Source: an uncultured Flavobacteriaceae bacterium | GTDB taxonomy: Bacteria > Bacteroidota > Bacteroidia > Flavobacteriales > Flavobacteriaceae | Direction of reading: 5' to 3' | Length of the DNA stretch: 64,000 nt | Assembly (NCBI GenBank): GCA_964453045.1 | Contig: CAYVNR010000006.1 | Coordinates: 83,747 to 147,746 of the forward strand | In this document: positions 20,117 to 49,586 of the stretch, piece after piece | Layout: each line of letters begins with the position of its first letter | Numbering within the stretch: position 1 is the stretch's first letter | Position numbers and translations under genes: made by a program | The notes under the pieces: model-generated | What the model saw: only the letters and a program-made list of their open reading frames with translations | The model's database searches: none | What the model was told of the DNA's origin: nothing

Positions 20117-20299
20117 TTATTTGCCCAACATTAAAAGTTCGCTGCAAACCACTTCGGTTGTGTAACGCTTTATTCCATCCTTGTCTTCCCAAGTGCGTGT
20201 TGTAAGCTTGCCTTCTATCGCCACTTCTTTGCCTTTGCCTACAAATTTCTCTACAATTTGGGCCGTTTTTCCCCAAGCTACAATATTGTGCCATTGTGT
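20117..20299 (-). pseudogene. ssb: 3' half of single-stranded DNA-binding protein gene, interrupted by island insertion
   Basis: Minus strand reads TQWHNIVAWGKTAQIVEKFVGKGKEVAIEGKLTTRTWEDKDGIKRYTTEVVCSELLMLGK*, hallmark SSB OB-fold motifs. Upstream in this frame there is no ATG before a stop inside the recombinase gene. Confidence 0.9.
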
Positions 20300-21762
20300 T
20301 GACCATTCTGACCTAATTCTAAAGCAGATAGCGGTGCTATCTGTTTTAATTTGAAGTTTATGGTTTTACCATCAAACACAATACGCTCTGTAACTGATTG
20401 AATGATAAATCGTTTTTCTGGTCTACTTAAGCTATTCCAATTTTGGTAGAGGTCTTTTGATTTATCGAGCACTAAAGACAGTGAGCCTTTAGCCCGTTGT
20501 ATCTCTTCTAGCTCTTTATTTAGAGTACTTAAATTAGCTTCCAATTGAAGCTTTTGTTCAAATAATGGCTCATAGTGATGCTTAAATCCTTCTGTTGGTA
20601 TTTGTCCTTCGATATTCAGAGTAATGAGCCTATCCATTTTCACTTGAACCTCTTCTATACTACTCTCTGCAAATGTAATTTCTTCCTTTTTTAGTTTAAT
20701 CTCATTGTCTGAAGATTGAGTATACTGATTAATTTCTTCTTCTGAAATGATAAACTTTTCTATCCGAGTTTTGAAAACATCTTCTAAATCATCTTTATCA
20801 ATCCTCAGTCTACACTTTGGACACGAATACTTATTTGTTTTACTCTGAACTGACATCTTATGCCCGTTGATACAGTACAAGTAGCTTGTGAAAAGATGCA
20901 CCCTCTGATTTAGAGGTTTCGTCTGACTACTATTTTCTTCTTGTTCTCTTATAATTGCATTACAAGCTTCCCATGTTTCATCTGAGACAATTCTTGGGCA
21001 GGGACTAAAAATCCATTCAGATTTTGGTTTTATTCCTGTAGGATTGTCTTCGCTAGGCTTTCCTTTGTAATTTGATTTTCTTATCCCTTTGGCATCTGTA
21101 TTTTTAAGCAAACGTGACACCGACACATCTGACCACTTGCTGTTATTTCGAGTACGGTACCCTCGCTCATTGAGTATTCGCGCAACTGTACTTCTCCTTT
21201 TGTGTTGAAGGAACAGATCATACATAAGTTTTCTAATTGGTGCTTCTTCTTCGTTAATTACTAAACGGGCATTTTGTATTTTGAAACCATACGAGGCTTT
21301 TCCACCAGTCATCTTTCCCATAGCTCTTCGAGTTTCAATTGACGCCATCATCCGCTCTAGGTTGTTCTCACGCTCCCACTCTGCCATCCCTGCAATCATC
21401 GTATAGAAAAACCTTCCACTTGACGTGGATGTATCGATTGATTCACTCAAGGAAATCATATTGGCGTTGTACTTTCTGAAGTGTTTTGAGTAAAAGAGAA
21501 GCTCATCAGTGTTTCGAGCAAGTCTAGCAAGTTTGCTAAAAATGAGTCCTTGTATCTTTCCTGTTTTCACATCCTCGAGCATTTCTTGGGTCTCTTTGAG
21601 ATGAAGCGTAGACTTTCCCGATATTCCAGGAAGGGTGTACACCTTAACAACGTTCCACTGCTTTGAGGCTGCGTACATCCTTCCTCTTCTTTCGTGGGTT
21701 TCTGGACTCTCCTTATTTTTCTCATCGATAACGCTCACGCGAACAAATATTCCAACATTCAT
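20278..21762 (-). CDS. Large serine recombinase (integrase 1)
   Basis: IFVRVS catalytic motif, SKLARLAR, recombinase domain, Zn ribbon (CINGH...CPKC), coiled coil. Confidence 0.94.
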   Translation of the reverse strand: MNVGIFVRVSVIDEKNKESPETHERRGRMYAASKQWNVVKVYTLPGISGKSTLHLKETQEMLEDVKTGKIQGLIFSKLARLARNTDELLFYSKHFRKYNANMISLSESIDTSTSSGRFFYTMIAGMAEWERENNLERMMASIETRRAMGKMTGGKASYGFKIQNARLVINEEEAPIRKLMYDLFLQHKRRSTVARILNERGYRTRNNSKWSDVSVSRLLKNTDAKGIRKSNYKGKPSEDNPTGIKPKSEWIFSPCPRIVSDETWEACNAIIREQEENSSQTKPLNQRVHLFTSYLYCINGHKMSVQSKTNKYSCPKCRLRIDKDDLEDVFKTRIEKFIISEEEINQYTQSSDNEIKLKKEEITFAESSIEEVQVKMDRLITLNIEGQIPTEGFKHHYEPLFEQKLQLEANLSTLNKELEEIQRAKGSLSLVLDKSKDLYQNWNSLSRPEKRFIIQSVTERIVFDGKTINFKLKQIAPLSALELGQNGQHNGTIL

Positions 21763-21828
21763 GTTTTCAGTGTTTTACATCTAAGTTACTTCATTTATAG
21801 GTTAGTTAAAAGTTAAAATTGGTAATAT

Positions 21829-24800
21829 TCATTTGCGCTTAAAAAGCATTTTTGCAATCTGTTCTCGAATATTCTTAGAGTTTGAAATTGTCTTGCTTTC
21901 AAACTCTGTTGTTATACGAAATCCTTTGACAACTTCACCTCTTATCTGAGGCTCCTCACTTATAGTATCTAGTACCTCAGCCACTTCATGTGGTTGAATG
22001 TATGTAGTAAGGCTAAAATCTTTTTCCGATAGTTGTTTTTGGGCTAAATTCTGTATTGCGTTAAGATGGCTTCTATTTTTTGAAACCATTACAACAGGAA
22101 TATATCCGTTAGCCAAGCACTTCTTGATGTTTTTTACTTCGTAGTGGGGCGTATTGGTAACCGAAATCTCAAAAGCTATCCTTACAACACCTCGCTCTAA
22201 TGCGATATCAATTCTGCCACCATCACTCGTTTCTTTTTCCACCGTAGCTAGGAAGCCTCTTTGTTGACCCAACTTTTTGATCTTTGTTTGCAAGTACTTA
22301 TGGTCTCTTATCACAGTTGAACTTTCTTCTTGTTCAATCAGTCCCTGCCTTTGTTCTTCGGAAATTCTTACGCTATCATCATTATTTGTTCTAACCTCTT
22401 CCTCATTCTGAAGCTTAATATTCTCTTGAGAAACTAAAGGCTTTTTCTCTTCAACAACTTTTTCTAGACGCGTCTCTTTTTTTGTAACGCTCTTTTGTTT
22501 GGGGAGTAAATCAACGATGATGTTATTTAAATCGGATTTCTTTTGAGCATATTTCTCTCTCGTGTTTTTGATAATGTAATTTCTTGTATCCTCTCCGCCT
22601 TGTTGAATATCACTTAACCTACGTGTGGTTATATTAAAATCATTTTTCGCTGAACCTACTCTCACAATAGCCTCACCAACTCCAAGATTCTGTAAATCTG
22701 ACTGATCAAAGTATGAAAAACCAGATTCCAGACGTTTTGCATCATTGTCACCAAGCCTAAAGCAGATGCGGATATATGGGTTTGAAATAACTGAATTTAA
22801 AGTTTTGGTATCATCTATTTGAGCTAGTTCTTGATGGGCTAAGATTAGCCCAAGTCCATACTTCCTCGCTCCTGAAAGTATTCTGGTAATACTAGGCGTG
22901 ATGAAATTTTGAAATTCATCAAGGTAAATGTAATATGGGTGTCTTTGTGATTTGGGAAGTGACTGCCGACCTTGTGCCACTTGGTTAAATTTTGAAAGGA
23001 ATAGTGACCCCAAGAGAAAGCTGTTTTCCTCACCGATTAAGCCTTGTGATAGTTTGATAAGCACAATCTTTTTTTCTTCAATACAGGCTCTAAAATCAAT
23101 ACCCTTGGTTTGAGCCAACATATATCGAACAACTTTTGGACGAAGAAACGTATCGATGCGTGTAAGTAATGGAGCGATGCCTTTACGTACCATAGCGTAC
23201 TCGTTGTTCCAATAGTAGTGAATGGACGGGTCTTCTACTGAGGTTAGAAACTCGTTTCTGAATTTTTCTTCTAATAAAAAACGTTTTAGTTCAATGAGTG
23301 TCCCGTCTCGACTACTTTCTAAAAAAGTATTAATGGCATTTGATAACACGGCCGACATGTTATCACCCCATGCGGTGGCGTGGCGCTTGAATGATGATAC
23401 CAGGTCCGAACCTAAGACTATCTTCTCAGTATCAGTTGTTGCGCCTAGTAAGTTAAAACCAATAGCGTACTCACTATCTGAAGGGTCTATGAGGATTACA
23501 TCTTGTATCCTATGTTCTGGTACACGGGCCAACACATCTTCTACAATGTCACCGTGGGGGTCGAATAATGCACAGCCATTTCCGTTTTTCATGTCTTCAA
23601 TGAGCATGTTGGCAATCAAAGTTGATTTTCCGACTCCAGTGGCTCCAATAATATGGGTGTGTCTCAACCTCATCTCATCATTTAAGGTCACCTCTGTTTC
23701 TCTTGCACTATGTTCATTGGCACCCAATACATACCTTTGATTCAGAACCGATGGTGGTGCTTTCTTGGTCTTACCACTTTGCAAGCCCAACTTTTGTGAT
23801 ACTACGGTTTTGTTTGGATAGTGAACAAAGGTATTGAGTTCATCTGCATTGAGAATAAATCCCAACCGGTTACTTAAACGGTGATGCAAATTATACTCAT
23901 GAAAATTGTAATCATATCCATGGTTCGATAACGGGATAAGCTTGTTATGTTCTGATGTTGAAGTAATGGAAACGCTTCGCATTAATTCATTTGCCAGATA
24001 CTCACTTCTGAAATCATTTTCTCCTTGTGCGGCAACTCTCATTATTACTGAAAATAGAGGTTTTGAAATCTTGCTTTTTGCAGAACCCGTCATATATGGT
24101 GCATCAGAAAAAAAAGAACCTCCAGCCCCATCGGAAACAGATGCCGTTATATCTTTTGCCAAGGGCGAAGAAACTCCTTTAAATAGTACTTGAAATACCG
24201 CAATATCATCTTGGACAAGTGCATCCATTGTTGCAATGATAGAGGTGAGAGGATCAATGCTCAGTGAATCAACGGTAGCAATGGGAAGCATGAACTCACA
24301 GTTTATACCAAAGTCGGCAATCGCAATGGTACTCTCGTTACTGAAACCAAAGTTACCTACCTCAATCTCTCGTATAATTACCGATGGATAATATGCCTTA
24401 AAAAGAGATATAACGTGGTTCCTATCACGCTCACTGCATACTATTTGAATAACAATGTTTTCTTTGCCACCTATTATTTCAAACGAAAGAGCATGCTCTG
24501 AAAACGATAGCATACTGAGAAACTCAACATTTCTATTTGAAAATATCTCAGTTCCTTTAGGAAAAGAAATTGATAATCCAATCAAATGAGGTTGGTCATC
24601 AAAGACTAAATAATCTGGATTCAGTTCCGATTGTTCTAATTCAATCTCTTTTTGCTTGTCCGATGGAGATAAAAGGTTGCTGAATCTATCTAGTAAGGAA
24701 GGTACTCTGCCATCATCAAAGTCGTATTGAAAGTCGGTTAAATGCTTAAAAGGAATGTGTGGTGGTTCTATATACACAGGGGTTTCAAAGTGATAATAAC

Positions 24801-24864
24801 CTCGATACTTATATTCCCACTGATAGAAGTTTAACGTCGCTTCATCACTAGCAGACAAACCCAT
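21829..24864 (-). CDS. TraD/VirD4-like (HerA/FtsK superfamily) ATPase with C-terminal PD-(D/E)XK-like extension
   Basis: Walker A GATGVGKS, Walker B YIYLDEFQNF, ARKYGL; C-terminal HKYLQ...GRIDIAL...IAFEISV. Confidence 0.82.
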   Translation of the reverse strand: MGLSASDEATLNFYQWEYKYRGYYHFETPVYIEPPHIPFKHLTDFQYDFDDGRVPSLLDRFSNLLSPSDKQKEIELEQSELNPDYLVFDDQPHLIGLSISFPKGTEIFSNRNVEFLSMLSFSEHALSFEIIGGKENIVIQIVCSERDRNHVISLFKAYYPSVIIREIEVGNFGFSNESTIAIADFGINCEFMLPIATVDSLSIDPLTSIIATMDALVQDDIAVFQVLFKGVSSPLAKDITASVSDGAGGSFFSDAPYMTGSAKSKISKPLFSVIMRVAAQGENDFRSEYLANELMRSVSITSTSEHNKLIPLSNHGYDYNFHEYNLHHRLSNRLGFILNADELNTFVHYPNKTVVSQKLGLQSGKTKKAPPSVLNQRYVLGANEHSARETEVTLNDEMRLRHTHIIGATGVGKSTLIANMLIEDMKNGNGCALFDPHGDIVEDVLARVPEHRIQDVILIDPSDSEYAIGFNLLGATTDTEKIVLGSDLVSSFKRHATAWGDNMSAVLSNAINTFLESSRDGTLIELKRFLLEEKFRNEFLTSVEDPSIHYYWNNEYAMVRKGIAPLLTRIDTFLRPKVVRYMLAQTKGIDFRACIEEKKIVLIKLSQGLIGEENSFLLGSLFLSKFNQVAQGRQSLPKSQRHPYYIYLDEFQNFITPSITRILSGARKYGLGLILAHQELAQIDDTKTLNSVISNPYIRICFRLGDNDAKRLESGFSYFDQSDLQNLGVGEAIVRVGSAKNDFNITTRRLSDIQQGGEDTRNYIIKNTREKYAQKKSDLNNIIVDLLPKQKSVTKKETRLEKVVEEKKPLVSQENIKLQNEEEVRTNNDDSVRISEEQRQGLIEQEESSTVIRDHKYLQTKIKKLGQQRGFLATVEKETSDGGRIDIALERGVVRIAFEISVTNTPHYEVKNIKKCLANGYIPVVMVSKNRSHLNAIQNLAQKQLSEKDFSLTTYIQPHEVAEVLDTISEEPQIRGEVVKGFRITTEFESKTISNSKNIREQIAKMLFKRK

Positions 24865-24870
24865 ACCCCA

Positions 24871-25413
24871 TTAGTTTCTTTTGAAAATATCGTTCAAAAC
24901 TGGCTTAGGTATCTCCTCATCCAATTTAATTCCTGATGTTTCAGTTATGTGATTTAATTTCGACAACATTATTTCATGACAATACTTCATGAACATACTT
25001 GAGGTATCTATTCTGTACATGGTAATAGGAAATAGCTTACGCATAAGGTATGATCCGATAAAAGGAATACTTCCAACTAAAATCTCTCTTTTACGCTGTT
25101 TATAAAATAAATGCCAACTGAGAAAAAAACCATTGCCAAACGGAGCTGCACACATGTAGAAATTATATTCTCTCCAATTTATTTTAAAATATTTACGAGA
25201 TAAGGAAAATACACCTCCCTCTTTTTCAATTACTTCCCCTGAACCACATTCTCTAATTTTATTGTCTGTAACACCTTGTTTTAAATGCCCATAAAACTCT
25301 TGGGAAGAGTAATTGAAATTATCTATCAGGTGTGACCAGTGAGAGTGAAAAGTACCTTTATTATTTGCGAATGCAATTATTGTTAGTACTATAAATATCA
25401 ATATGAATAACAT
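24871..25413 (-). CDS. Membrane-anchored hypothetical protein
   Basis: N-terminal TM segment (MLFILIFIVLTIIAFA), directly upstream of the ATPase gene; start moved to 25413. Confidence 0.7.
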   Translation of the reverse strand: MLFILIFIVLTIIAFANNKGTFHSHWSHLIDNFNYSSQEFYGHLKQGVTDNKIRECGSGEVIEKEGGVFSLSRKYFKINWREYNFYMCAAPFGNGFFLSWHLFYKQRKREILVGSIPFIGSYLMRKLFPITMYRIDTSSMFMKYCHEIMLSKLNHITETSGIKLDEEIPKPVLNDIFKRN

Positions 25414-25417
25414 AACT

Positions 25418-25879
25418 CTATTTTTTAATAAATAATTTTGACCAACTTTTTTCTTCGCTCTTGAGATGTAATAAATAGACTCCATTTGAAAGTTTACCTA
25501 CGTCTATTACAACTTCACTATTCTCAATACTTGTACTATAGCTTTCCATGGTTCGTCCATTGACGTCATATATTGTAATCTTAACATCTTGAGTGCTAAA
25601 GTCAGAAGGAAGCTTAATGTTTAAACAATTTTCTGTTGGGTTTGGATAAACCGTAATAACATCTTTTAGTGTTTCTTCATCTATGCTGAGTGTCTCGATA
25701 TTCAACTGCGTGCGGTTACCTAAATTATCATACACATAGTTATGTGTCGAACCATCATTAAAAACAACCTGAACCAAACGGTTCAAGTTATCGTAAGAGT
25801 ATGTTGTCGTCTCTTGTTGGATTTGGGCATTTGCTGAAAAACAAATAAATAATAATAAATACGTTATTTTTATTCTCAT
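25418..25879 (-). CDS. Small YD-repeat + T9SS type A CTD protein
   Basis: Signal peptide, YSYDNLNRL...YVYDNLGNR, then YPNPT...LSNGVYLLHL...KLFIKK CTD; start moved to MRIKI. Confidence 0.85.
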   Translation of the reverse strand: MRIKITYLLLFICFSANAQIQQETTTYSYDNLNRLVQVVFNDGSTHNYVYDNLGNRTQLNIETLSIDEETLKDVITVYPNPTENCLNIKLPSDFSTQDVKITIYDVNGRTMESYSTSIENSEVVIDVGKLSNGVYLLHLKSEEKSWSKLFIKK

Positions 25880-25883
25880 AAGT

Positions 25884-26228
25884 TTATGATTTATATGAAC
25901 CAAGACACTTTTTTGCATGATTCGTTATTCTTATCCAATTTTGATCCTCAAGTATATCACTATCAGATTTATACTTATTCTCAGCTAAATATTTTGAAAG
26001 TATGATATCTAAATGAGATAGATCTTCATATAATTCCTTACCAATATTTTCTTTTTCTTTTTTTAAAAAAAAATCAAAACAAAAATCGTCATACAAAAAA
26101 GCTATATCCTCATCAAATGAAGAAACAGTTTCACTATTTTTAACTAACCAACTCTTCTTTTGTTTATCTATATTTGCTATATTTTTTATAGACCAATAGA
26201 TATTGTAATACCAATTTAATTTGTTCAT
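25884..26228 (-). CDS. Probable immunity protein of Rhs toxin 1
   Basis: 114 aa, very AT-rich, begins 11 bp after the Rhs stop. Confidence 0.7.
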   Translation of the reverse strand: MNKLNWYYNIYWSIKNIANIDKQKKSWLVKNSETVSSFDEDIAFLYDDFCFDFFLKKEKENIGKELYEDLSHLDIILSKYLAENKYKSDSDILEDQNWIRITNHAKKCLGSYKS

Positions 26229-26239
26229 AATTCTTTTAG

Positions 26240-29200
26240 TTAAAAGTCATTAATTGGGATATGCGCTTCAGGGACATTACCACTTGGCAAAGGATTTCCA
26301 TTAATATCCACAAAAACACCATCAACACTACGCTTCATATATGCATTCCTTTGGTAAGAATTCGGTGAGTTTGGGTTGCCTGGCATCAATCTAATATGGT
26401 TTCCTGTAGGATTATTAGGATCAAAGTACTTAACACCATTACCTTTTTTTGTTGGTCTTGATATCCAACCATTAGGGATTAAGCCCCCTACTTTTTTTCC
26501 GTATTTCCCTACTGTAGCACCCCAACCAAAAATAGGAATCATAGCTGCACTACTCAAAGCAGCATTTAAACCATCACCTTTTATTGCATATAATATAGCA
26601 TTATATCCGTCAGCAAATTCTCCAATACCTGGAACTAAGCCTAATATATCAGCACCGATATGATAAACATCAACAGTAGTTTCAAGTACAGGAATAACTC
26701 TATTGTCAATAAATTCATCTGACAACTTTCCTCTTGGATCAAACCTACTGATTGGATTATTATCCGCGTAAGGATATAAATTAGTATGCCAAATAGGGTC
26801 TTCAGACAAGAACCTGCCAATTGATGGCTTGTAGTAACGAGCTCGCATGTAGTATAAATCATCTGTTTCATACTCTACGCCATAGATGCCTACATATCGA
26901 AATCGGTTAGTATCGTTTTCAGGTTCTAAAGCTCTAGTCACCTTTCCAAAATCATCATAGCGGTATTGGTGCGTTATGTTACCCAACTCATCTGTCATCA
27001 TAACCGTACTTCCCCTTATATCACCATGGTAGTAGTGCAAATCCCCATCGGGTTGCATTCTCGCAAGAACCATTCCATTGGAACTGTATATATAATATTT
27101 TTTAGTGTTGTTATTGCTATCCAATTCAACGAGTATATTATCCAATCTTACATCTCTAACATACTTTGTAGTTTCTCCATTTCTGACTGACTCTACACGT
27201 TGATTGTACGGATTATAATCAAAATTAAAAGTATTGTCAACATCTGTACAACTCGCTAATCGATCATCAATATCAAAGGTATAAGATACTTCAGAGCCTT
27301 CGCTAATGGTGTTGCCATCATCATCCAAGTCGTAATTCACACCACCAGCGAAGGTAATTTGATTATTATCATCATAGCTGTATGAGACGTTAGTGGAATT
27401 AGTAGAGTTTCCAGGATTAAAGCCTGGTGGAATCGGAGAAAACCATTCATAGGTTTGAGTTATATTTCCACGACTATCAAATTCATGGTGACTTGTATAT
27501 AATGCAGAATTGTCACTTAGATCTTCATGCTGTATAAAATCTAATCTGCCAGCATCATCGTATTCATAGTTAATGCGTATGCCATTACCTAAATCGATCC
27601 ACCTGACCCTGTCGTCATCATGATATTCGTATTCAGCTATAGTGGTATCACCGCTTCCGACATTTCGGTTGAGGGTTATTAACCATATCCTGTTTTTATT
27701 ATCATACTGATAATCCACCTCTACATCTATTCCGTTTATACTCGGATACAACAACTCCTCAACTTGACTGGTATCTGTATAGTCGTACTCTACATCAAAA
27801 CCATGTACCGTAGTTACTCTCTCTAATTGATTTAGATTATCATAATCAAACTCCATTGTTCCATAATCATTGGTAATATCTTCAACAAGGTTTCTGTCAT
27901 TATAGTCGATATAAGTTATTGTCCCTGTTTCCTCCAATCGTCCATCATTATCATATTCGTAATCAATGTCCAAGCCTGATGGTTTGGTGATTTCTTCCAA
28001 ATACCCTTCGTCTCCATAGTCATATTGGGTTACCAGATTTCCAAACTGCTCCTCGATTACCCTGTCTTCATCATCGTAGGTAAATGACGTAGCAACATTA
28101 TTTGCGTTGATGATTTCAGTTAAGTTATCATTCTCGTCATAATCATACGCTGTTACAAAACCCCCAGAGTTTATCATTTGGGTAATGTTATCATTGTCGT
28201 CATATTGATATGAAGAAATAAGCCCATTGTCATCTCTTTCAAGGAGGCGATTTACTCCATCGTAAGTAAATGTACTGCTGATACTTTCAGGTGCATCCAT
28301 CGTGGCTACTGCACCATCATTTTCATATGTATAGTTTATGGTGATCCCGTCTTGATTCGTTTGGGATAACAGTTGACCATACGTATCATAAGTGAACAGT
28401 ATAGAATTATTGTAGGCATCTATAATCTCAATGAGATTCTCATCATTGTCGTAAACAAATTCAGTAATATTACCCTCTGGGTCAATATATTCCACAAGAT
28501 TATTATCGTTGTCATATTCAAATTCTTCAACCACATCTCCATTTTCTTTATCAATTCTAGTAATATTTCCATCACTATCATATTCATATTCAACATAGAC
28601 TCCGTTTAAGTTTGCATCAGTTGGACGTAAAACGTTGACCCCTGAAGAAGGATAATTGACTACAATCTCGTCCGTATCGCTTGAATAATTCGTAACCAAT
28701 CCCTTATCATTGAACGTATAGTTTTCATGAAACATCCCACCACTTGGTAATGGTGTTTGTACTCCGGAAGTCAGAGCATTATTTTCAAAATCAAACTCAA
28801 CATTGACTTCGATAGGATCATCACCATCAATCTGGTATTGGCGTAGTTTTCCATTGTTGTCGTACTCAGCTTCAATTTGATTCCCCCTAGGAAGATCAAT
28901 TCGGAACAGCAAGTATTGTCCATAGCTGCTATCTTGATAGTATTGGTAAACCGTTAGATTGTCCTTTGCATCTTCAAAGCTTATCAAAATTGGGTAGTCG
29001 AAAGCTGAGCCTGAAGAGGTTCCCGAATATTCAAAACGTATATCCCTGTCAATAGGATCCTCAATTTTATCAACAAGATCAGTGCCATCTAGATATTCAA
29101 ATTCTAATCGTTTCCCAGATGGTGCAATGACTTCTTCAATACGTCTAGTATCGTCCTCTTCTGCACTTTCATATTCTATGTTGATTTCGTTACCATTGGG

Positions 29201-30226
29201 ATCCTCAATCTCAACGAGATAAAAAATATCTCTAGCGTTATCCAATTGCTCAAATCGATAACGTACCTGGTTCTTTTTAGTAATGTCAATCTCGTCCCCT
29301 TCAGAATCATCAAAGTTATCATAGACACCCAAGGTTTCGTATTCGTTTTCATCTTCGTTATATATATCAATTGTTCCATCTGGCCAAATGATGTAGTAAT
29401 AGCTAACAGAATCTTCACCGACATTGTTCTTTCTGACGATGTAGGCATTATAGGTATGTGACCAACCTCTTCCAAGCGGTTGGATAGAGTAAAAAGATTG
29501 GGGCATTTCCACCATTTGTGTGCTGTAGAAATGAGAAAAGTTTAAGTTCATTTTTCTGTCAGGAATCACAAAGCTGTTCTTTGCGTAATGGTTGAACACA
29601 CCCTGTTCGATCCCTCTGGAAAAGCCCAATGTATCGTATGCATACGTTCCTATTGTGAAGTAATTGTCAATATCCAATAACTCATTTTGAGTTGGGGCGG
29701 TTACATTGGCTTCAAGAAAATTGATGTAATCTGAAGTACCGCTAAAAGAAAGTCCTGACTCTGGTTGCAGTTGAGATGTATTTGGAAGCATTCCCAAAAC
29801 ATAGGCAGTGACTATGTGGTCATAATAGATGGTATTTTGGTTCACGTCACTATATGGTTCAGAACCATTGGTTATCAAGGGTACGTTAAACGCCTCGATT
29901 AGTGTTTTGATGATACTGGCATGAAACGGAATTTGGCCTATATCAAAATTTGGATCTTCTCTCCTCAATACGGAAATGCCATCTTGAAATTCAAGATAGC
30001 TCAATAACCTAGCCTTTTTGCTAAAGTCCGAATCATCATCCATATCCACAAAAATATTTGGGAAAGATGCTGCTGGATAATCATCAGGATCGGCACCGTT
30101 ACCATATATAGAGTTGAATATAGCATTTGTCAGTTCAAACTTTGTGGTTTGGGAATGTATTTGGTTACCAATAAAAAGGTAGCACAAAAACAATAGGTAT
30201 AGATGGTAATTTTTTTTCACGATCAA
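26240..30226 (-). CDS. Rhs/YD-repeat polymorphic toxin 1 (SLH-like region, PT-TG-like pre-toxin, Ntox30-like tip)
   Basis: Signal peptide, many YD repeats, RYYKPSIGRFLSEDP...PISRFDPRG core, DILGLVPGIGEFADG pre-toxin motif, C-terminal RLMPGNPNSP...EAHIP. Confidence 0.9.
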   Translation of the reverse strand: MIVKKNYHLYLLFLCYLFIGNQIHSQTTKFELTNAIFNSIYGNGADPDDYPAASFPNIFVDMDDDSDFSKKARLLSYLEFQDGISVLRREDPNFDIGQIPFHASIIKTLIEAFNVPLITNGSEPYSDVNQNTIYYDHIVTAYVLGMLPNTSQLQPESGLSFSGTSDYINFLEANVTAPTQNELLDIDNYFTIGTYAYDTLGFSRGIEQGVFNHYAKNSFVIPDRKMNLNFSHFYSTQMVEMPQSFYSIQPLGRGWSHTYNAYIVRKNNVGEDSVSYYYIIWPDGTIDIYNEDENEYETLGVYDNFDDSEGDEIDITKKNQVRYRFEQLDNARDIFYLVEIEDPNGNEINIEYESAEEDDTRRIEEVIAPSGKRLEFEYLDGTDLVDKIEDPIDRDIRFEYSGTSSGSAFDYPILISFEDAKDNLTVYQYYQDSSYGQYLLFRIDLPRGNQIEAEYDNNGKLRQYQIDGDDPIEVNVEFDFENNALTSGVQTPLPSGGMFHENYTFNDKGLVTNYSSDTDEIVVNYPSSGVNVLRPTDANLNGVYVEYEYDSDGNITRIDKENGDVVEEFEYDNDNNLVEYIDPEGNITEFVYDNDENLIEIIDAYNNSILFTYDTYGQLLSQTNQDGITINYTYENDGAVATMDAPESISSTFTYDGVNRLLERDDNGLISSYQYDDNDNITQMINSGGFVTAYDYDENDNLTEIINANNVATSFTYDDEDRVIEEQFGNLVTQYDYGDEGYLEEITKPSGLDIDYEYDNDGRLEETGTITYIDYNDRNLVEDITNDYGTMEFDYDNLNQLERVTTVHGFDVEYDYTDTSQVEELLYPSINGIDVEVDYQYDNKNRIWLITLNRNVGSGDTTIAEYEYHDDDRVRWIDLGNGIRINYEYDDAGRLDFIQHEDLSDNSALYTSHHEFDSRGNITQTYEWFSPIPPGFNPGNSTNSTNVSYSYDDNNQITFAGGVNYDLDDDGNTISEGSEVSYTFDIDDRLASCTDVDNTFNFDYNPYNQRVESVRNGETTKYVRDVRLDNILVELDSNNNTKKYYIYSSNGMVLARMQPDGDLHYYHGDIRGSTVMMTDELGNITHQYRYDDFGKVTRALEPENDTNRFRYVGIYGVEYETDDLYYMRARYYKPSIGRFLSEDPIWHTNLYPYADNNPISRFDPRGKLSDEFIDNRVIPVLETTVDVYHIGADILGLVPGIGEFADGYNAILYAIKGDGLNAALSSAAMIPIFGWGATVGKYGKKVGGLIPNGWISRPTKKGNGVKYFDPNNPTGNHIRLMPGNPNSPNSYQRNAYMKRSVDGVFVDINGNPLPSGNVPEAHIPINDF

Positions 30227-30319
30227 CTTGATTTAATGTTAATTTCTGAATCAATATTAGAAAAAAATGATGCTGATGTGAGTGTATATTTAGCTGTTTT
30301 TTAGTATAAAAGTACATTA

Positions 30320-30335
30320 TTACCCCTAGGGGTAA
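30320..30335. promoter_or_regulatory. Perfect 16-bp palindrome upstream of Rhs 1
   Basis: TTACCCCTAGGGGTAA, 94 bp upstream of the Rhs 1 start. Confidence 0.55.
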
Positions 30336-30371
30336 CATCCCCACTAAGAAAGTTCATACGAAATGGGGACA

Positions 30372-32078
30372 CTACTCCTTTGAAAGTGTTTTTTGGAATG
30401 TCAAAAACTCTTTTTGATATATGGAAACCGAGACAAGCTTATCAATTCTATCCAAACTGTTGTCATAAGCTTTGAGCTTTTTATATAGTTTGTTGCGTCG
30501 TTTTTTTATGGCGCCTTCTGTAACCGACTTTAGTTTTTCCGCAATCTCAGCCTCTGAAAACCCTTGGGATTGCATAGTCCAAAACTCAATTAAACTATCT
30601 GTTAAGTTGTACTTCTGCTTTAATTTGGCATTGAACCGCTCCCTATAATTTTGCCCAAGACTCGGTTCACGAATGCTGAAAACCTCTTTTTGAGATTCTT
30701 TAAGTGTATCTATAATGTGAATAAGCTCACTCTCCCTTCTTCTTTTTTTGTTCATGAAAAGAAGATAGGCAAACAATAGAACCAGAGCAAAAACCGAAAG
30801 TGCCAAAATAACATAGAGACGTTTCCGATTGTTCACACGCTGTTCACTGATAATATCATCCTTTTCGTTGAGTTCATATTTTATCCTGATGAAATCTTCT
30901 TTGTAGCGTCTATCCACGAGATCCAAGCTATCTCTTACGGCAATATACTCTTTGAATTTATCTTTTATTCTGTTATCAGGGTAAAGCTCGGCCATAAATT
31001 CCAATGACACGAGATAATCTCGGTACTTCTTGGTCTTGTGTGCAATTCGTTCAGCCCGTTCTATGTATGCCACAGATGTGTCAATGCTAATATCCTTATA
31101 GTATTCTGCTAGATGAATGTAACTCATGATGATACCGTGATCATCAGATTCTCGTTCTCGAATATTAAGTGCCTGCTCAAGGTTGGTTAACACACTATCT
31201 AATCGGTTGGTTCTAAAATGGGCATGGGCCATGTTGTCTATCAACGCTGCTTTGGTTTCTGGATAAGAGCTCAAAATACTGTCATTTTCAGAAAGCCCTA
31301 AATTAAAGTACCTTATGGCTTTTTGATAGTTTTGAGCGTCCTTGTACGACTTACCGATATTGTTCAACGACTGAATAGCATAAATTGGTTTATCCTTAAT
31401 TTCTATACGCAATCTGTATGCCTTTTCATGGTATTCTATTGCTTTATCATAGTTTTTCAGATTATTGTATATAATCCCCAAATTGTTATAAACAGAGGAT
31501 ATACGCCTTGTGTTTTTTGTATTCTTTAAGAAATCCAATGCTCTGAAGGAAGAAATTTCGGCACCTGAATAATCATGCACATTTTTCTGGAGGATGGCAG
31601 TATTGAGCATTATTTTTCCTGCGCTCAGTGAATCACCGATGGCTTCATAGAGTTTAAAGCTCTTGTAATAATAATAAAACGTACTATCGACTGCATGGTG
31701 CCTTTTGTAGAATGCCGACTTGTACTCAAGAACCTTGGCAACAGATGCCGTATCAAATCTGCGCTGAGAAAATTCTAAACGTTGTTGAGCATACTTTTGA
31801 AAGTTTAGTGAATCTTTAGATTTATAATGCAGGTTTACAAATTTTTTAAGTGCAAAACCCATCAGGGAATCATCATGAAACTGTTTTGCATACAGGTACA
31901 GTTTATGGTTGCTTATTATCCTGTGCCGCAAGTCCAATTTAGAATTGTTGACTCTTTGTACAAGATTATGTATTGAGTCAATCTCTCGTACGCTTCCCTC
32001 ATTTTGTGAAAGAAGATTTGAAAAAGGGCTAATTAAAATAAAAAGGAAAATTAAACTAGACCTCATACGTAAATACAC
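30372..32078 (-). CDS. TPR-TM-HTH (LuxR-like) one-component regulator
   Basis: Signal-like N-terminus, TPR repeats (YNNLGIIYNNLKNYDKAIEYH), TM segment LYVILALSVFALVLLFAYLLF, C-terminal GFSEAEIAEKL..VTEGAIKKRRNKLYKKL. Confidence 0.82.
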   Translation of the reverse strand: MYLRMRSSLIFLFILISPFSNLLSQNEGSVREIDSIHNLVQRVNNSKLDLRHRIISNHKLYLYAKQFHDDSLMGFALKKFVNLHYKSKDSLNFQKYAQQRLEFSQRRFDTASVAKVLEYKSAFYKRHHAVDSTFYYYYKSFKLYEAIGDSLSAGKIMLNTAILQKNVHDYSGAEISSFRALDFLKNTKNTRRISSVYNNLGIIYNNLKNYDKAIEYHEKAYRLRIEIKDKPIYAIQSLNNIGKSYKDAQNYQKAIRYFNLGLSENDSILSSYPETKAALIDNMAHAHFRTNRLDSVLTNLEQALNIRERESDDHGIIMSYIHLAEYYKDISIDTSVAYIERAERIAHKTKKYRDYLVSLEFMAELYPDNRIKDKFKEYIAVRDSLDLVDRRYKEDFIRIKYELNEKDDIISEQRVNNRKRLYVILALSVFALVLLFAYLLFMNKKRRRESELIHIIDTLKESQKEVFSIREPSLGQNYRERFNAKLKQKYNLTDSLIEFWTMQSQGFSEAEIAEKLKSVTEGAIKKRRNKLYKKLKAYDNSLDRIDKLVSVSIYQKEFLTFQKTLSKE

Positions 32079-32134
32079 GATTTTATCTTGTTGGTAGTCT
32101 CAAATATAAAAAATATTGTAGCTTTATAAAGTAA

Positions 32135-32162
32135 AAATCCCTGACGAATCAGGGATTTAAAT
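32135..32162 (-). terminator. Intrinsic terminator after the small peptide gene
   Basis: Minus strand AAATCCCTGA-TTCG-TCAGGGATTT followed by a T-run. Confidence 0.7.
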
Positions 32163-32176
32163 TTGAGGATGATTAG

Positions 32177-32326
32177 TTATTGATCCTCATCTGGTTCAGC
32201 GGGATCATCCACCTCATCTCCACCTGTCGCATACGTTGGAGTTTCGATGTGATCATCGTCTGGACTACATGACATTATTCCCATTGTAAAGCACATAAGA
32301 ATAATGAAGATTCCTTTTTTAATCAT
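32177..32326 (-). CDS. Small lipoprotein-type peptide (49 aa, absent from ORF track)
   Basis: MIKKGIFIILMCFTMGIMSC-SPDDDHIETPTYATGGDEVDDPAEPDEDQ*: basic N-terminus, hydrophobic core, lipobox-like Cys20, acidic tail, own terminator. Confidence 0.72.
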   Translation of the reverse strand: MIKKGIFIILMCFTMGIMSCSPDDDHIETPTYATGGDEVDDPAEPDEDQ

Positions 32327-32460
32327 AGTAATCAGATTTAAATCTGATCCGGATCAATTTGGATCGCCTTCCAAACTAGGCGTGTTAAACAATAACTTGT
32401 CCAAGTTCATTTAGATATCTGATACAAAGAAGGGCAAAAGAATAAAGGGTATTGCAAAAC

Positions 32461-32495
32461 ATTCCGGAAGATTCCGAAAGGTTCCAGAATGTTCC
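32461..32495. repeat. Four helically phased RTTCC repeats
   Basis: ATTCCGGAAG ATTCCGAAAG GTTCCAGAAT GTTCC with a 10-bp period, in the divergent promoter region. Confidence 0.55.
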
Positions 32496-32527
32496 ATTTT
32501 CAACTATAAAATTCAAATATTACAGGT

Positions 32528-33775
32528 ATGAATAAGGGTTTTAAAGAGCTTTATGAGTTATATAATCAAGCTAAATCCAATGCTCTGTTAATAACTTTAG
32601 ATAATCCGACAACGGGAAACATAAAGAAGTGTTTGATAGATGCTGTTAACGATAATGAATTATCAGAAAAACACAAAAAGGCTATCTTTTATTTTTTGTC
32701 TGACCCTCATAAAGCAAACCATCTGGATAAATTGACTAATCTGGATCTCATTCAACTGATTTTAGAAAGTAAATTAGACGTATACAGACCCATATCAGGT
32801 TTTTTTAAGGGCAAGCCAAAGAAAATAGACAAGCATGGTGGGCGTACCATCCTTAATCTAATTCTAGAATCAGATTTAAAGAAAACCGCAGAACCTCATT
32901 TAAAAGAAAGTGTAGTGCAAAATCAACCATCAGAAAAAGAAGATAAAGCTTTTGCTGAAAAGAGCCGCGATTCTGGTAAGTTTTACATCACAGTTACTGG
33001 AACTGTTGTTGCCCTTGGGTTGGTCCTGTTCTTTACATACTTGGCAATAAATAAAAATGATAGTTCAACAAAAGCGGACACCAATAATTATCATATTGAA
33101 AACTACGTGGTTTCACAGAAGGATAGAATACCCGAAAACCAATTGATCGATCATTTCAGTTATCAGGACAAACCAGAACTTTGGTATATCTCATACAAGG
33201 GACAAACAGAATTCTATTCAAAACCAGGCATTCATAAAATAACTAAAAGACCCCTTAAGCCTGTTAGCAAAGAAATAATCTCGGCATATAAAGATCAAAG
33301 TGATGCAAATAACCCTAAAACAAAAATTGAAGAAGGCAAACATAGAAGCCCTGTCGACGATAACTCAACGGTTAAAGAATTAGCTGTCATCATTTTTAAT
33401 AATGAAAGTAAATTGGATATTGAAGCCCAAAATCATTTAAAGAAACTCCTTAAAAATGATTACACCTTTAGGGCGATTGATTACTTGAGCAATGGTTTGT
33501 CAGCCCAAATTGTTGACCAGATAAAGTCATTCAATTTTAATTCTCTTGATATTAATGAGGGTGAATCAGAGTTTATTCTTATTGGAGAAATTGATTATAG
33601 CTTCTCGCAAAGCGATATTCAGAAAGATATGACAGTATGTAGACTATCTCTAAACTACTCAATTATTTCTTACAATAATAAAAAAGAAATGGACAGTAAT
33701 TCCATATCAGTATCGGGAATCGGATTTTCAGAATCCAATGCAAAACAAAACACCATTAAAAAAATCACATTATGA
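32528..33775 (+). CDS. Single-pass membrane hypothetical protein
   Basis: Cytoplasmic N-terminus, TM at about residues 155-175, periplasmic WY...EFY...GIH..T.RPLKP motif. Confidence 0.7.
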   Translation: MNKGFKELYELYNQAKSNALLITLDNPTTGNIKKCLIDAVNDNELSEKHKKAIFYFLSDPHKANHLDKLTNLDLIQLILESKLDVYRPISGFFKGKPKKIDKHGGRTILNLILESDLKKTAEPHLKESVVQNQPSEKEDKAFAEKSRDSGKFYITVTGTVVALGLVLFFTYLAINKNDSSTKADTNNYHIENYVVSQKDRIPENQLIDHFSYQDKPELWYISYKGQTEFYSKPGIHKITKRPLKPVSKEIISAYKDQSDANNPKTKIEEGKHRSPVDDNSTVKELAVIIFNNESKLDIEAQNHLKKLLKNDYTFRAIDYLSNGLSAQIVDQIKSFNFNSLDINEGESEFILIGEIDYSFSQSDIQKDMTVCRLSLNYSIISYNNKKEMDSNSISVSGIGFSESNAKQNTIKKITL

Positions 33776-34695
33776 AGACACAGTTTCTACCTCTACTGCT
33801 GTTAATTACAGTAACCATAAATGCTAACCTTTTTGCCCAAAGTGACTATTCCGATTTTGATAGAAAAATGATTTCATTGGCTGAAGAAGTAGCAAACCGC
33901 ATTCAGTCTAAAAATAAAATAAAAGTAGCCCTTGGGGATTTTACCGATAGCTTTAAAGAAAAAAACACTCTCGGAGACTATATAGCTGATGACTTTTCCA
34001 TTCACTTTACCAATGCAAGTGACAATCTCGAGGTAACCGATAGGCATAACTTAAAACAGTTAATGAAAGAGCACAAGTTAAATGCGGAAGGGTATATTGA
34101 CCCCAGCACCGCAAAACGAATAGGAATGTTAATTGCTGCCGATGCGATTGTAACGGGGACCGTGGATATTGGGTTACATTCTTTAAGGATTAGGATAAAG
34201 ATCATTGATACTGAAACGGGGCTGCACTTTGCCGCTGCCTTGAGGAATTTGCCCATCGATGAAAACATAAAGGTCATTTTGAAAGACGCGGGCTTTGAAA
34301 GCTCGGTTAAACCAGAGGGAAAGCGCATCAATACAAATGAGGAAAGTAACAATAAACGTACGACGAATAAAAAATGTGAATCTTTGAAAACTGGAGATTA
34401 TTATTTTGAAAACAAGTCCCAATATAGCTACCTCATAGATATTAAAAGTTCAATTAACAGTTATAAAAAGACCATTACCGTCAGCAAAGGCCAAACAACA
34501 GCTTTACAGGACCTACCCTCGGGAACCTATACGTTCAAAATGTATAAAAATAACCTACGAACCACAGCCGGGCCGACTCAACAAGGTAGTTTTAGACTAA
34601 AATCCTGCCAATCTATCACTTATTCTATCCTCAAATCAAAAGAGTATGATATAACCGACGATTTCTATAAAGCAGTAAAGAAAAAACGTAATTGA
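33772..34695 (+). CDS. FlgO/CsgG-like domain secreted protein
   Basis: Signal peptide; VALGDF...LEVTDRHNLKQLMKEHKL...AKRIGMLIAADAIVTGTV pattern. Confidence 0.68.
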   Translation: MKTQFLPLLLLITVTINANLFAQSDYSDFDRKMISLAEEVANRIQSKNKIKVALGDFTDSFKEKNTLGDYIADDFSIHFTNASDNLEVTDRHNLKQLMKEHKLNAEGYIDPSTAKRIGMLIAADAIVTGTVDIGLHSLRIRIKIIDTETGLHFAAALRNLPIDENIKVILKDAGFESSVKPEGKRINTNEESNNKRTTNKKCESLKTGDYYFENKSQYSYLIDIKSSINSYKKTITVSKGQTTALQDLPSGTYTFKMYKNNLRTTAGPTQQGSFRLKSCQSITYSILKSKEYDITDDFYKAVKKKRN

Positions 34696-34884
34696 CTTTT
34701 GTATTTATTCTACAATTACTTAAAATGAAAAACCTGATAACCAAATTTTATAATCTGTGTTAAATAATCATTAACTTAGATTTTTAACACCGTTTTCTTA
34801 AAAACTTTCTTACCTTGTGGGTAGTCTTAACCTTAAAGACTCTTAGTTAATTAATTCCTGTTTGACGAGAACTAAATTGAAATT

Positions 34885-34900
34885 CCCCTAGTGGGTTAAC
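34885..34900. promoter_or_regulatory. Motif related to the 30320 palindrome, upstream of the Rhs 2 operon
   Basis: CCCCTAGTGGGTTAAC versus CCCCTAGGGGTAAC. Confidence 0.4.
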
Positions 34901-34927
34901 TATATTAATCAATTTTGATAATTAACT

Positions 34928-36046: not shown

Positions 36047-36050
36047 TTCA

Positions 36051-43225: not shown

Positions 43226-43229
43226 TTTT

Positions 43230-44006: not shown

Positions 44007-44033
44007 TAAACAGTATATCTCAACTCCATTATT

Positions 44034-47789: not shown

Positions 47790-48167
47790 AATAAAGATAG
47801 TATTAAAACTTACTGTAAAACAAATACTGTAAGTCTTCAAAGAATATTTACCAATTAGGTTTATATGTTAATTCTACAACAAATCATGAGCCACAAATAT
47901 AGTTTGCGGGCCTGGCAACCATATTCAATTATGTTTTCTTTTGGCTCCCAGATTTTATCTTGGGAGCTTTGTTTGGACTTAATAGTTCTTCAACCAATTA
48001 TCTACTTTTTTACTGTATACCACCATTTTTTATAAGTAAAAAATAATGTCAGGTATAGAATGACAGACACCGAAAAACTAATGAGGAAGTTGACAATTAA
48101 ACATCCAAATGGAGCGATTTAATTCGTAACTTGTAAAGACGTTTTTAATTTTTGAAACAATACGAAC

Positions 48168-48770: not shown

Positions 48771-48781
48771 GAAGTTTATAC

Positions 48782-49558: not shown

Positions 49559-49586
49559 GAATTAAAGTCATTCTTTAATAAAAGTA

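Follow-up and report, generated by a model that had tools for sequence, protein, structure and literature searches.

Does an integrase that takes its stop codon from the gene it has interrupted remain the same protein once its element is excised? The question is raised by the 64,000-nt stretch of contig C6 analyzed here (the window), in which a large serine recombinase (LSR) abuts the 3' part of an ssb gene. The host of the island is probably a Winogradskyella. In the reading we favor, at a probability of about three in four, the element was inserted into ssb by its own LSR, its attP lies inside a composite frame encoding integrase, linker and helix-turn-helix (HTH), and integration splits that frame, a change which would act as a state-dependent switch.

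The interrupted ssb and its empty site

The first-pass annotation had placed the island inside ssb and looked to island-free relatives to define the empty site, and on both counts the relatives agree. Five same-genus relatives carry an uninterrupted 110-aa ssb at the matching locus, adjoined by a cupredoxin-like gene as it is here. By blastn, the relatives' locus aligns to C6 up to C6:104045 (window 20299) and then resumes on a second contig (C15:1150-1441), with a 14-nt overlap between the two alignments. The ssb features involved are as follows.

20118..20299, minus strand: host ssb 3' part, on the chromosomal side of attR, from codon T51 to the stop (translation TQWHNIVAWGKTAQIVEKFVGKGKEVAIEGKLTTRTWEDKDGIKRYTTEVVCSELLMLGK*, read 20299->20118; Pfam SSB positions 43-103; the relatives' homology stops at 20299)
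C15:1149-1313, minus strand: host ssb 5' half, beyond the island's far end
About C15:548-880, minus strand: island-borne intact ssb, just inside attL

The 5' half had been expected past 64 kb on the same contig and was found instead on C15, in the same assembly. It covers positions 2-51 of the Pfam SSB model (PF00436), and joining the two halves yields a 110-aa protein with an OB-fold SSB domain, identical to the ssb of the relatives. The insertion falls where the OB fold has its conserved Trp-His codons. Genome-wide there is a single 5' half and a single 3' half of ssb, and the 14-nt shared core occurs twice. The far end, which was to be checked for a restored ssb, does not supply one: island sequence adds 15 codons to the 5' half before a stop. 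The target is, as annotated, a protein-coding gene rather than a tRNA; protein-coding target genes are usual for LSRs.

In SSB proteins, an acidic C-terminal tail (..DDLPF) recruits replication and repair partners. The target ssb lacks this tail, its OB fold being followed at once by the end ..ELLMLGK*, and it is therefore an accessory paralog rather than the canonical replication SSB. A second ssb elsewhere in the genome, whose presence was to be checked, does exist: the canonical copy on contig C37 is untouched and ends ..DGDDDLPF*, and the island carries a further intact ssb. A replacement ssb of this kind is present in 11 of the 11 genomes examined. The element has broken this accessory ssb at the codons most conserved in it and would substitute its own copy under the host promoter, an arrangement giving it a landing site that may be stable across genera and cost the host little.

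An alternative is that the ssb pieces are island-borne partial duplications, or products of homologous recombination between paralogs, with no site-specific crossover in the integrase ORF. The island-borne ssb is 78% identical to the rebuilt host gene, and several ssb copies occur per genome, which speaks for such a history. The relatives' single intact ssb, however, lies exactly at the joining point with flanking synteny on the 3' side, and in 11 genomes from different genera one and the same codon is broken. On its island side the break has inverted arms of the type found in attP sites of serine integrases, and at the attB arm positions the sequence of the island-borne ssb departs from that of the host gene. 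This alternative is already contradicted, and we give it almost no weight.

An attachment core within the integrase frame

The following features make up the island ends, as annotated in the window and on C15.

20278..21762, minus strand: large serine recombinase in its integrated-state form, 494 aa (Pfam Resolvase and Recombinase)
20278..20285, minus strand: purely target-derived integrase nucleotides, ..TA TTG TAG (attR compared with attL)
20286..20299, minus strand: 14-bp core ACACAATGGCACAA (14-nt alignment overlap; two copies in the genome)
20298..20307, minus strand: P arm of attP, AATGGTCAAC (sequence; inverted-repeat search on the rebuilt attP)
C15:~1136-1145: inverted partner arm GTTGACCATT, encoding L-T-I of the HTH frame
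C15:884-1150, minus strand: HTH frame, XRE-type, directly behind the truncated ssb 5' half

The enzyme has a resolvase-type catalytic domain (Resolvase, PF00239, 6.9e-29, residues 5-150) whose R8-V9-S10, including the nucleophilic serine, is invariant in 18 homologs, followed by a Recombinase domain (PF07508, 1.6e-18, residues 171-273). A zinc ribbon falls short of E 0.001 with PF13408; the alignment shows C297, C314 and C317 to be invariant.

The integrase ends ..GQNGQHNGTIL*, and the earlier observation that this end lies in ssb-like sequence read in another frame is confirmed by alignment, as the last 22 nt (20278-20299) match the relatives' ssb in the +1 frame. Fourteen of these 22 nt are the core common to the far end, and the remaining 8 nt are derived purely from the target. 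The final two residues and the stop (I-L-*) are read from ssb sequence, which upholds the proposal that the integrase takes its stop codon from the target gene. The core is identical at attR and at attL (C15:1150-1163) and covers ssb codons T51-Q-W-H-N55 as well as integrase codons 488-493, so that the crossover would lie inside the integrase ORF, as first suggested, and the gene spans its own attP. Exactly two copies of the core are found in the 3.6-Mb assembly (C6:104032 and C15:1150), one per island end, where we estimate that chance would give about 0.03 occurrences. With the core at these codons, the C-terminus of the integrase must differ between the integrated and the excised states.

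Joining the island ends rebuilds an attP of the form AATGGTCAAC-16 nt-GTTGACCATT, in which an inverted-repeat search recovers 10-bp inverted arms. The left arm AATGGTCAA encodes N-G-Q of the integrase, and the right arm TTGACCATT encodes L-T-I in the HTH frame. The same arms are kept in 10 ssb-type elements, in keeping with the short attP with inverted arms that characterizes serine integrases. The crossover dinucleotide is predicted to be the CA of GGCACAA, at the symmetry center of the rebuilt attP. An AATGG repeat had also been pointed out across the junction. Both copies are present, one in the arm AATGGTCAAC and the other in the core, but they form no feature of their own: the second copy reads CGTGG or CTGTGG in family members. 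An arm-like GTGTTGACCATTTG at C4:27698 was discarded as a chance match inside an ordinary membrane-protein gene.

Within the rebuilt attP, the integrase frame is open into an 89-codon frame for an XRE-type HTH, for a total of ~581 codons. The junction is predicted to read ..AATGGTCAACACAATGGCACAACAGCGTTGACCATT.. from the 3' end of the integrase to the HTH; in the excised circle, CA GCG TTG ACC.. would replace ..TA TTG TAG and lead into the HTH frame, which contains an HTH_3 domain (5.6e-10) and has no ATG of its own. The state dependence first claimed for the integrase C-terminus is therefore larger than had been supposed, with 89 further codons through HTH_3. An open integrase-HTH frame is found in 10/10 ssb-targeting elements of other Flavobacteriaceae genera, spanning 570-595 codons from stop to stop. 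Two elements with non-ssb targets and integrases 41-42% identical to this one (G152, and G284 in comM) are likewise open across the rebuilt attP.

The integrase has 2914 homologs, and the C-termini of ~90 of them are conserved to ..NGQ(H/Q)(N/R)G, after which ssb follows in the +1 frame. Such a shared truncation point is expected of the integrated state and not of random damage, and it bears on whether the truncated integrase might be simply a damaged gene in a decayed, immobile remnant whose layout serves no present function in this genome. Fossils of the family do exist, as G301 has lost its integrase and there are stops in the 3' part of ssb in G196. In the present island, by contrast, the integrase ORF is undamaged and has the invariant catalytic residues, the att junction is exact at each end, and the backbone genes are intact and colinear with those of three other islands, and we regard decay as highly improbable.

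Possible consequences of splitting the frame

In the favored reading, the excised circle would contain a single ~581-codon ORF encoding a complete LSR and then the XRE-type HTH. In the integrated state, the integrase retains all recognized LSR domains and ends after two ssb-derived codons (494 aa), and the HTH frame lies at the far end behind the ssb 5' half, followed by the island ssb in the same orientation. Because the HTH and the island ssb stand in line behind the truncated ssb, the host ssb promoter would read both. The circle would then make a tethered integrase-HTH protein, which we take to be the integration-competent form, while the integrated copy would make the integrase without its HTH and possibly also a free HTH started at the TTG of the arm. 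This change of protein with state may act as a switch: a free HTH could be a regulator made only when integrated, or a tethered HTH could be needed only for integration. A functional switch of this kind is suggested by the arrangement of the frames. A stronger version is that only the circle encodes the HTH-tethered integrating form and that the inserted copy makes untethered integrase plus a free HTH through the captured ssb promoter, setting direction or silencing without a separate directionality factor or repressor. We advance this version tentatively, as a possibility that we do not favor.

The split may instead have no consequence, if the integrase is already whole ahead of the att site and the HTH is a separate, TTG-started gene in both states, with the open frame a by-product of frozen geometry and no switch at all. 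All recognized LSR domains do lie upstream of the core, and in 10/10 ssb-type elements, as in comM-type ones, the arm contains a TTG in the frame, complementary to CAA (Gln) in the other arm; independent translation of the HTH from this TTG is possible. The 18 nt between the 9-mer arms are fixed by att geometry, from which the in-frame relation follows, so that a conserved open frame is no independent sign that a fusion has been selected; the few codons from the conserved end of the integrase to the arm lie inside attP. The integrase-less G301, and probably also G196, retain an intact HTH frame and ssb, which suggests that the HTH also works alone. Against this account, TTG is rare as a start codon, no Shine-Dalgarno-like sequence was seen by eye before the TTG in the L078 element, and G152 has TTA in place of TTG with no ATG, GTG or TTG at or upstream of its arm. 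A linker of ~20 residues between the arm and the HTH is conserved as protein, and translation must therefore start at or before the arm.

Naturally continuous genes also weigh against a split without consequence. Continuous integrase-HTH ORFs of 603-740 codons, with 1-3 HTH domains and no stop between integrase and HTH, persist in many phyla. Related elements outside this phylum have one such ORF of 603-659 aa that contains intact inverted arms. Continuous ORFs are found in elements L064, L078, L097, L106, L123 and L088; alignment of the first four of these to the rebuilt junction shows them to be colinear with it and essentially gapless across the att region. Inverted arms of 14 bp lie inside the continuous ORF, matched at 14/14 positions in L123 and 13/14 in L078. 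Taking both sides together, we consider an inconsequential split unlikely, less so than decay of the element.

The state of comM in genomes with a continuous ORF is mixed. In three such genomes comM is intact, and in at least two others (G349 and G356) comM is split at the position used by comM elements; the G349 assembly also holds a second LSR, in split form. Among split-integrase controls, comM is split at the expected place in 3/3. In L106, the continuous ORF and an intact comM share one 840-kb contig, a poor fit to a free circle.

Free forms were searched for directly. The attP pattern AAYGGNCARCNNAAYGGN(9)GTTGACCATTTG gave 0 matches in viral, metagenome and genome contigs; it is perhaps too strict, and some family members have CCATATG in the arm. 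To look for a fused form in close relatives, the in-silico fusion (residues 455-581) was queried against a 5.8-billion-protein set, and only split integrases were returned. Plasmid and phage records yielded nothing above about 32% identity, and the family is absent from sequenced plasmids and cultured phages.

Related systems and the body of the island

Serine integrases are generally regarded as one and the same protein whether free or integrated, a separate factor setting the direction, and our literature search found no description of a serine integrase ORF spanning attP or of such ssb/comM islands. Well-known LSR elements that interrupt genes are SPbeta (SprA, in spsM), skin (SpoIVCA, in sigK), Listeria A118 (in comK) and SCCmec (CcrAB). 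The island resembles these in having an LSR at the element end, an integrase gene adjoining a short att site with inverted arms, and a conserved coding gene as its target. Those elements, however, have their attP beyond the recombinase ORF, and integration leaves the enzyme unchanged, whereas here attP lies inside and the HTH is separated. Nor is the target ssb rebuilt for development here; the island supplies a whole replacement.

Closer parallels in gene architecture come from tyrosine recombinases. The integrase gene of Myxococcus phage Mx8 (IntP/IntX) reportedly contains attP in its 3' part, such that the prophage enzyme has a changed C-terminus (Tojo et al. 1996; Magrini et al. 1999), and in SSV1-type archaeal integrases attP lies inside the integrase ORF, the gene is split by integration and full protein comes from the free circle only. 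The island shares with Mx8 the position of attP and the altered C-terminus, and with the SSV1 type a gene that is split by integration and would give full protein only from the circle. The enzyme here is nevertheless a serine recombinase. Where Mx8 Int swaps a C-terminal tail, this integrase would lose a folded DNA-binding domain; where the SSV1-type split falls inside the enzyme and inactivates it, all catalytic and DNA-binding LSR domains here stay together. By analogy, the island integrase would work like the Mx8 IntP/SSV1 kind without being a member of it.

In mycobacteriophages BPs, Brujita and cluster P, integration splits the repressor ORF and removes a C-terminal degradation tag, which leaves a stable, active repressor, and a separate tyrosine integrase is used; integration itself sets this genetic switch. 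The likeness is that attP lies inside a frame encoding an HTH regulator and that the two states give different forms of a DNA-binding protein. There, however, it is the repressor gene that is split. Here the free state would join the HTH to a serine integrase, with attP in the stretch between the two, upstream of the HTH; the HTH itself stays whole. Engineered fusions of integrases to recombination directionality factors (RDFs) are another point of reference, as a C-terminal tether is said to change which att pair is recombined (work attributed to Olorunniji et al. 2017). Here too a serine integrase would carry a small protein at its C-terminal end. Those fusions are artificial and their tethered protein is a known directionality factor, a role that our observations do not give to the HTH, and a tethered RDF would favor excision, the wrong direction for a free circle.

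Two published observations are of interest for comparison. Competence genes are enriched among LSR targets (Durrant et al. 2022, PMC10083194). Wolbachia phage WO of the sr1WO type is inserted in the magnesium chelatase (comM-like) gene, with a serine recombinase at one prophage end and single-domain HTH_XRE genes at the other; its recombinase and HTH are treated as separate genes, and no attP inside an ORF is reported (PMC9203015). This layout resembles that of the island and, compared by description, serves as a lead only.

If the favored reading is true, this widespread family, with attP lying within the integrase gene, would represent a new, self-contained coupling of integration state to protein form, with a DNA-binding domain tethered to the integrase only in the free state. 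Catalogs of serine integrases come mostly from integrated copies and would therefore list the truncated enzyme for this family. Should the stronger version set out above hold, many integrases mined from integrated copies for genome engineering would be truncated versions of the natural integrating enzyme.

The island is at least ~57.7 kb long, with an assembly gap between C6 and C15, whose contig ends do not overlap. Its body is organized as follows.

20300..64000: island body in the window, continuing for 12.7 kb to the end of C6, then the gap, then C15:1-1149
21829..25485, minus strand: right-end backbone, conserved in the element family, directly upstream of the integrase gene on the same strand
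21829-24864, minus strand: TrwB/TraD-like ATPase, 1011 aa (Pfam TrwB_AAD_bind, DUF87, TraG-D_C)
24871-25485, minus strand: 204-aa ORF of the right-end backbone
25486..54024: variable cargo (Pfam; no orthologs in the Zhouia, Polaribacter and G340 islands)
26240-30226: RHS-repeat protein, cargo
34928-36046 and 44034-47789: T9SS-sorted proteins, cargo
36051-42542: SpvB/FG-GAP/RHS protein with an Ntox23 toxin end, cargo
54025..57700, minus strand: left-side backbone, including 164-aa and 176-aa ORFs on the same strand (Pfam; conserved, with three related islands keeping the gene order of the orthologs)
55111-55899, minus strand: Dam-type methyltransferase, left-side backbone
55915-56475, minus strand: RadC-like JAB protein, left-side backbone
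56450-57700, minus strand: second TrwB-like ATPase, left-side backbone
61093..61590, plus strand: phage replication protein O-like gene, also belonging to the conserved backbone (Pfam Phage_rep_O 1.3e-8; orthologs in three related islands)

The Zhouia, Polaribacter and G340 islands have orthologs of the right-end backbone, 54-67% identical, at the corresponding place. Versions of the element of 30 and 73 kb occur in Zhouia amylolytica CGMCC 1.6114 and Psychroserpens luteus SM1212. The island encodes two TrwB/TraD-like ATPases, which bears on whether the island is an ICE; among the ORFs scanned with Pfam, a set that ends before the C6 tail and the assembly gap, no relaxase or T4SS families were found. 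The recombinase at 57973-59586 was rejected as a partner or duplicate of the integrase, as it is 21% identical and absent from the related islands. The cargo also includes a TPR protein and several ORFs without a family. In related islands, the Phage_rep_O-like gene adjoins the island-borne ssb.

Insertion of the island into a short ssb gene

The 3′ half of ssb abuts a recombinase gene in the window, an arrangement that the first-pass annotation had read from the sequence and that translation and a Pfam SSB match bear out. This gene, integrase 1 (int), encodes both a resolvase catalytic domain and a recombinase domain (Pfam), which identify its product as a large serine recombinase (LSR). Its C-terminus is ..GQNGQHNGTIL* (asterisk, stop codon), and, as had been proposed, the gene ends within ssb read in another frame: the final 22 nt are ssb-derived sequence in the +1 frame. 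A profile search of the studied genome returned exactly four SSB matches, including a canonical second ssb whose existence had been left as a question.

Integrase 1 and ssb genes of the studied genome
Window 21762->20278, minus strand: integrase 1, 494-aa ORF directly upstream of the ssb fragment on the same strand
Window 20299->20118, minus strand: ssb 3′ part, TQWHNIVAWGK...ELLMLGK*, the C-terminal 60 residues of the SSB OB fold (Pfam SSB positions 43-103)
C15:1149-1298: ssb 5′ fragment, SSB match
C15:548-853: intact short ssb, island-borne, SSB match
C37: canonical ssb, ending ..DDDLPF

With the left flank as query against 40 relatives, an uninterrupted 110-aa ssb was found beside the same cupredoxin-like gene in five same-genus genomes (loci L006-L008, L011 and L012), in keeping with the earlier claim of an island inside ssb. 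The alignment of these loci to C6, the contig of the window, breaks off at base 104045 (window 20299) and resumes on C15 from 1150 to ~1441-1460, with an overlap of 14 nt. The 14-mer ACACAATGGCACAA has exactly two copies in 3.6 Mb, one per island junction. Together, the split alignment, the inventory of SSB matches and the two-copy 14-mer set the island limits at window 20300 and C15:1149. As reconstructed from these sequences, the island starts at window 20300, takes up the rest of C6 and, beyond an assembly gap, ends at C15:1149. It is at least 57.7 kb long; no contig-end overlaps closing the C6-C15 gap were found. The ssb 5′ half, sought beyond the 64 kb, was thus located, on a separate contig. 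The host is probably a Winogradskyella, an assignment based solely on the names carried by proteins that cluster with the neighbouring ferritin at 90% identity or more.

Following the orientation of ssb, C15 has first the 5′ half of that gene (M1 to N55) and the core, next GTTGACCATT and an HTH frame of 89 codons without ATG (HTH_3 domain, 5.6e-10), and then the intact 110-aa ssb, which is 78% identical to the rebuilt host protein. Whether the far end restores the host gene had been left to check; it does not, for the 5′ half of ssb enters 15 island codons and then a stop. Because the host ssb is broken and the island holds an intact copy, the island replaces the gene that its insertion disrupts. 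The HTH frame and new ssb are positioned downstream of the host ssb promoter, which would read through into both.

The canonical ssb (C37:~20450-20900, minus strand) has ..NTEWHNVVV.. at the position homologous to attB, the target-gene site, yet is intact; the element discriminates between the two ssb paralogues. Same-genus relatives share the downstream flank of the host ssb but not the sequence upstream of it (C15:1460 onward), so that the short ssb borders a variable region; in one relative (G007) the corresponding stretch matches contig C50 of the studied genome.

An integrase-HTH frame across the rebuilt attP

Joining the island sides of the two junctions in silico (attR in the window, attL on C15) rebuilds attP as ..AGAATGGTCAAC ACAATGGCACAACAGC GTTGACCATTTG.., with perfect 10-bp inverted arms flanking 16 nt. 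Its symmetry centre is the CA of GGCACAA, within the shared core, where the 2-bp crossover of a serine integrase would be expected. In this rebuilt site no stop interrupts the integrase frame, which reads ..GQNGQHNGT-TALTICALELTAPVPLKKGYPHHPSTYGEYLKQIRLDNGL.. and on through the whole HTH frame, giving 581 codons counted from the int start. The first-pass annotation had placed the crossover inside the integrase ORF, with a state-dependent C-terminus; this is supported, and the difference is larger, since the two states differ by a whole DNA-binding domain and not by a few residues. The att arms are complementary: where one has the Gln codon CAA the other has TTG, which gives nearly every element an in-frame TTG at the start of its HTH frame. 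Because the arm spacing is divisible by three, the shared reading frame comes with the geometry of the att site and does not count as independent evidence of selection.

Neither an attP form of a close ssb-type relative (attP-pattern scans of viral, metagenome and genome contigs, and plasmid/phage records) nor a fused integrase-HTH protein of one (protein search with the in-silico fusion) was found. Real read-through is argued for by an integrase-HTH element (G152) in which no ATG, GTG or TTG is available to the HTH frame up to and including the arm, by a linker conserved as protein up to the arm, and by long continuous integrase-HTH ORFs that persist in distant phyla. Function of the HTH alone is argued from int-less remnants that keep an intact HTH frame and ssb (G301; probably G196). 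We read these sequences as indicating that both forms exist, the HTH being tethered in the circle and free, or silent, upon integration; the functional meaning of the tethered versus the free state is inferred.

Related elements and continuous genes in other phyla

The protein collection holds 2914 homologues of integrase 1. The best ~90 are 50-82% identical, with named members from Flavobacteriaceae (Kordia, Psychroserpens, Polaribacter, Flavivirga, Gaetbulibacter), and are conserved up to ..KLKQIAPLSSLELGQNGQ(H/Q)(N/R)G before diverging into short tails (TIL*, IM*, TT*, TILWHGEKQLR.., TILLLGEKLLK..) that are ssb in the +1 frame. All 11 further genomes examined share one layout: the ssb 5′ half, an intact short ssb ~300 nt downstream, and the 3′ half, which is 30-73 kb away on the same contig in six, on another contig in four, and merely 2.8 kb from the 5′ half in G301. 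The integrase-HTH frame is uninterrupted (570-595 codons, stop to stop) in 10/10 rebuilt attPs, the elements with both ends recovered. G152 and G284 (the latter targeting comM) have integrases only 41-42% identical and other targets, with the same behaviour on rebuilding. In G347 (C47:4624-5792) the disrupted 5′ half is immediately preceded by an extra intact short ssb, so that a full ssb stands both before the 5′ half and after the HTH; the extra copy may be a trace of serial insertions or of tandem duplication.

Among 80 loci from many phyla examined, most have split integrases, a large class with tails such as ..GQHNFRDSW.., which is comM on the opposite strand. In six loci (L064, L078, L088, L097, L106, L123) integrase and HTH are encoded by one uninterrupted ORF. 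These ORFs span from 603 to at least 740 codons, and the integrase part is followed by between one and three HTH domains. Two others are incomplete: L063 shows the same junction in an ORF interrupted by the contig end, and L083 is terminated by a stop not far into the HTH domain. The junctions of L064, L078, L097 and L106 align essentially gap-free to the rebuilt junction of the studied island (for example ..KGQHNVTPALPFCDLVLRTPKPIDRAYPTELRSIGDH..). Inverted 14-bp arms lie inside the ORF in L123 (14/14 matched) and L078 (13/14), which by sequence are the unrecombined form. The comM states of these genomes agree with this reading: comM is intact in G351, G352 and G354, and split in G349 and G356 at the position used by comM-type elements, G349 also having a second LSR of split form (L073); the state differs or is not clear-cut in G350, G353 and G355. 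In three control genomes with split integrases comM is broken at model position ~155-165. L106 (G352; contig CBFHKH010000001.1, 840 kb) has poorly matched arms (7/8) and lies 500 kb from the intact comM on the same contig, which does not fit a free circle; another target, an inactive or domesticated copy, or a MAG mis-join may be involved.

LSR elements that insert into conserved genes are well known. Tyrosine recombinases offer known cases of an att site within the integrase gene (Mx8 IntP/IntX, SSV1), and the repressor of BPs-type mycobacteriophages one of an integration-set switch. The full-text literature searched yielded no description of a serine integrase ORF that spans attP and sheds an HTH domain. 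The design is a variation on known kinds that is itself new, as is the ssb-targeting Flavobacteriaceae subfamily with its replacement-ssb arrangement; its function is not proven. Competence genes are enriched as LSR targets (Durrant et al., PMC10083194). In phage WO sr1WO (PMC9203015) the layout is suggestively similar: the target is a Mg-chelatase gene, and the recombinase and HTH_XRE genes occupy opposite ends.

Backbone, cargo and remnants

Three related islands (Zhouia amylolytica, 30 kb; a Polaribacter MAG, 37 kb; G340, 33 kb) share a colinear backbone with the studied element: HTH, ssb, a replication-protein-O-like gene, a TrwB-like ATPase, RadC, Dam methyltransferase, two small ORFs, variable cargo, a 204-aa ORF, a 1011-aa TrwB/TraD-like ATPase and Int. 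No relaxase, type IV secretion, capsid or terminase families were detected by Pfam among the ORFs scanned, and the element could be a mobilisable island or satellite-like. Its cargo includes two RHS-type polymorphic toxins and T9SS-sorted proteins; small ORFs downstream of the toxins could be immunity genes.

Cargo toxins and second recombinase in the window
26240-30226, minus strand: RHS-repeat protein with RHS core, polymorphic-toxin type, variable cargo
36051-42542, plus strand: SpvB + FG-GAP + RHS protein with an Ntox23 toxin domain at its end, polymorphic-toxin type, variable cargo
57973-59586, plus strand: second LSR, 537 aa, with Resolvase, Recombinase and Zn_ribbon_recom domains

The second LSR, which may represent a nested element or an additional recombinase, is unrelated to integrase 1 (21% identical); it sits between conserved backbone genes and is missing from the three related islands. 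An element fossil (L169, G301:C1:47500-51000) has lost int. Between its two ssb halves, reading from the 5′ half, remain the HTH frame, the island ssb and a Fic/DOC-like gene accompanied by an HTH partner; the intact HTH frame hints that the HTH functions alone. Past the window end, C6:147745-160486 was read by eye as further cargo: a C5-cytosine methyltransferase-like gene, two large ATPase-like ORFs of 769 and 510 aa, and additional ORFs of defence type. In related islands the island ssb and the RepO-like gene, which flank this block, are separated by only ~0.5 to 9 kb.
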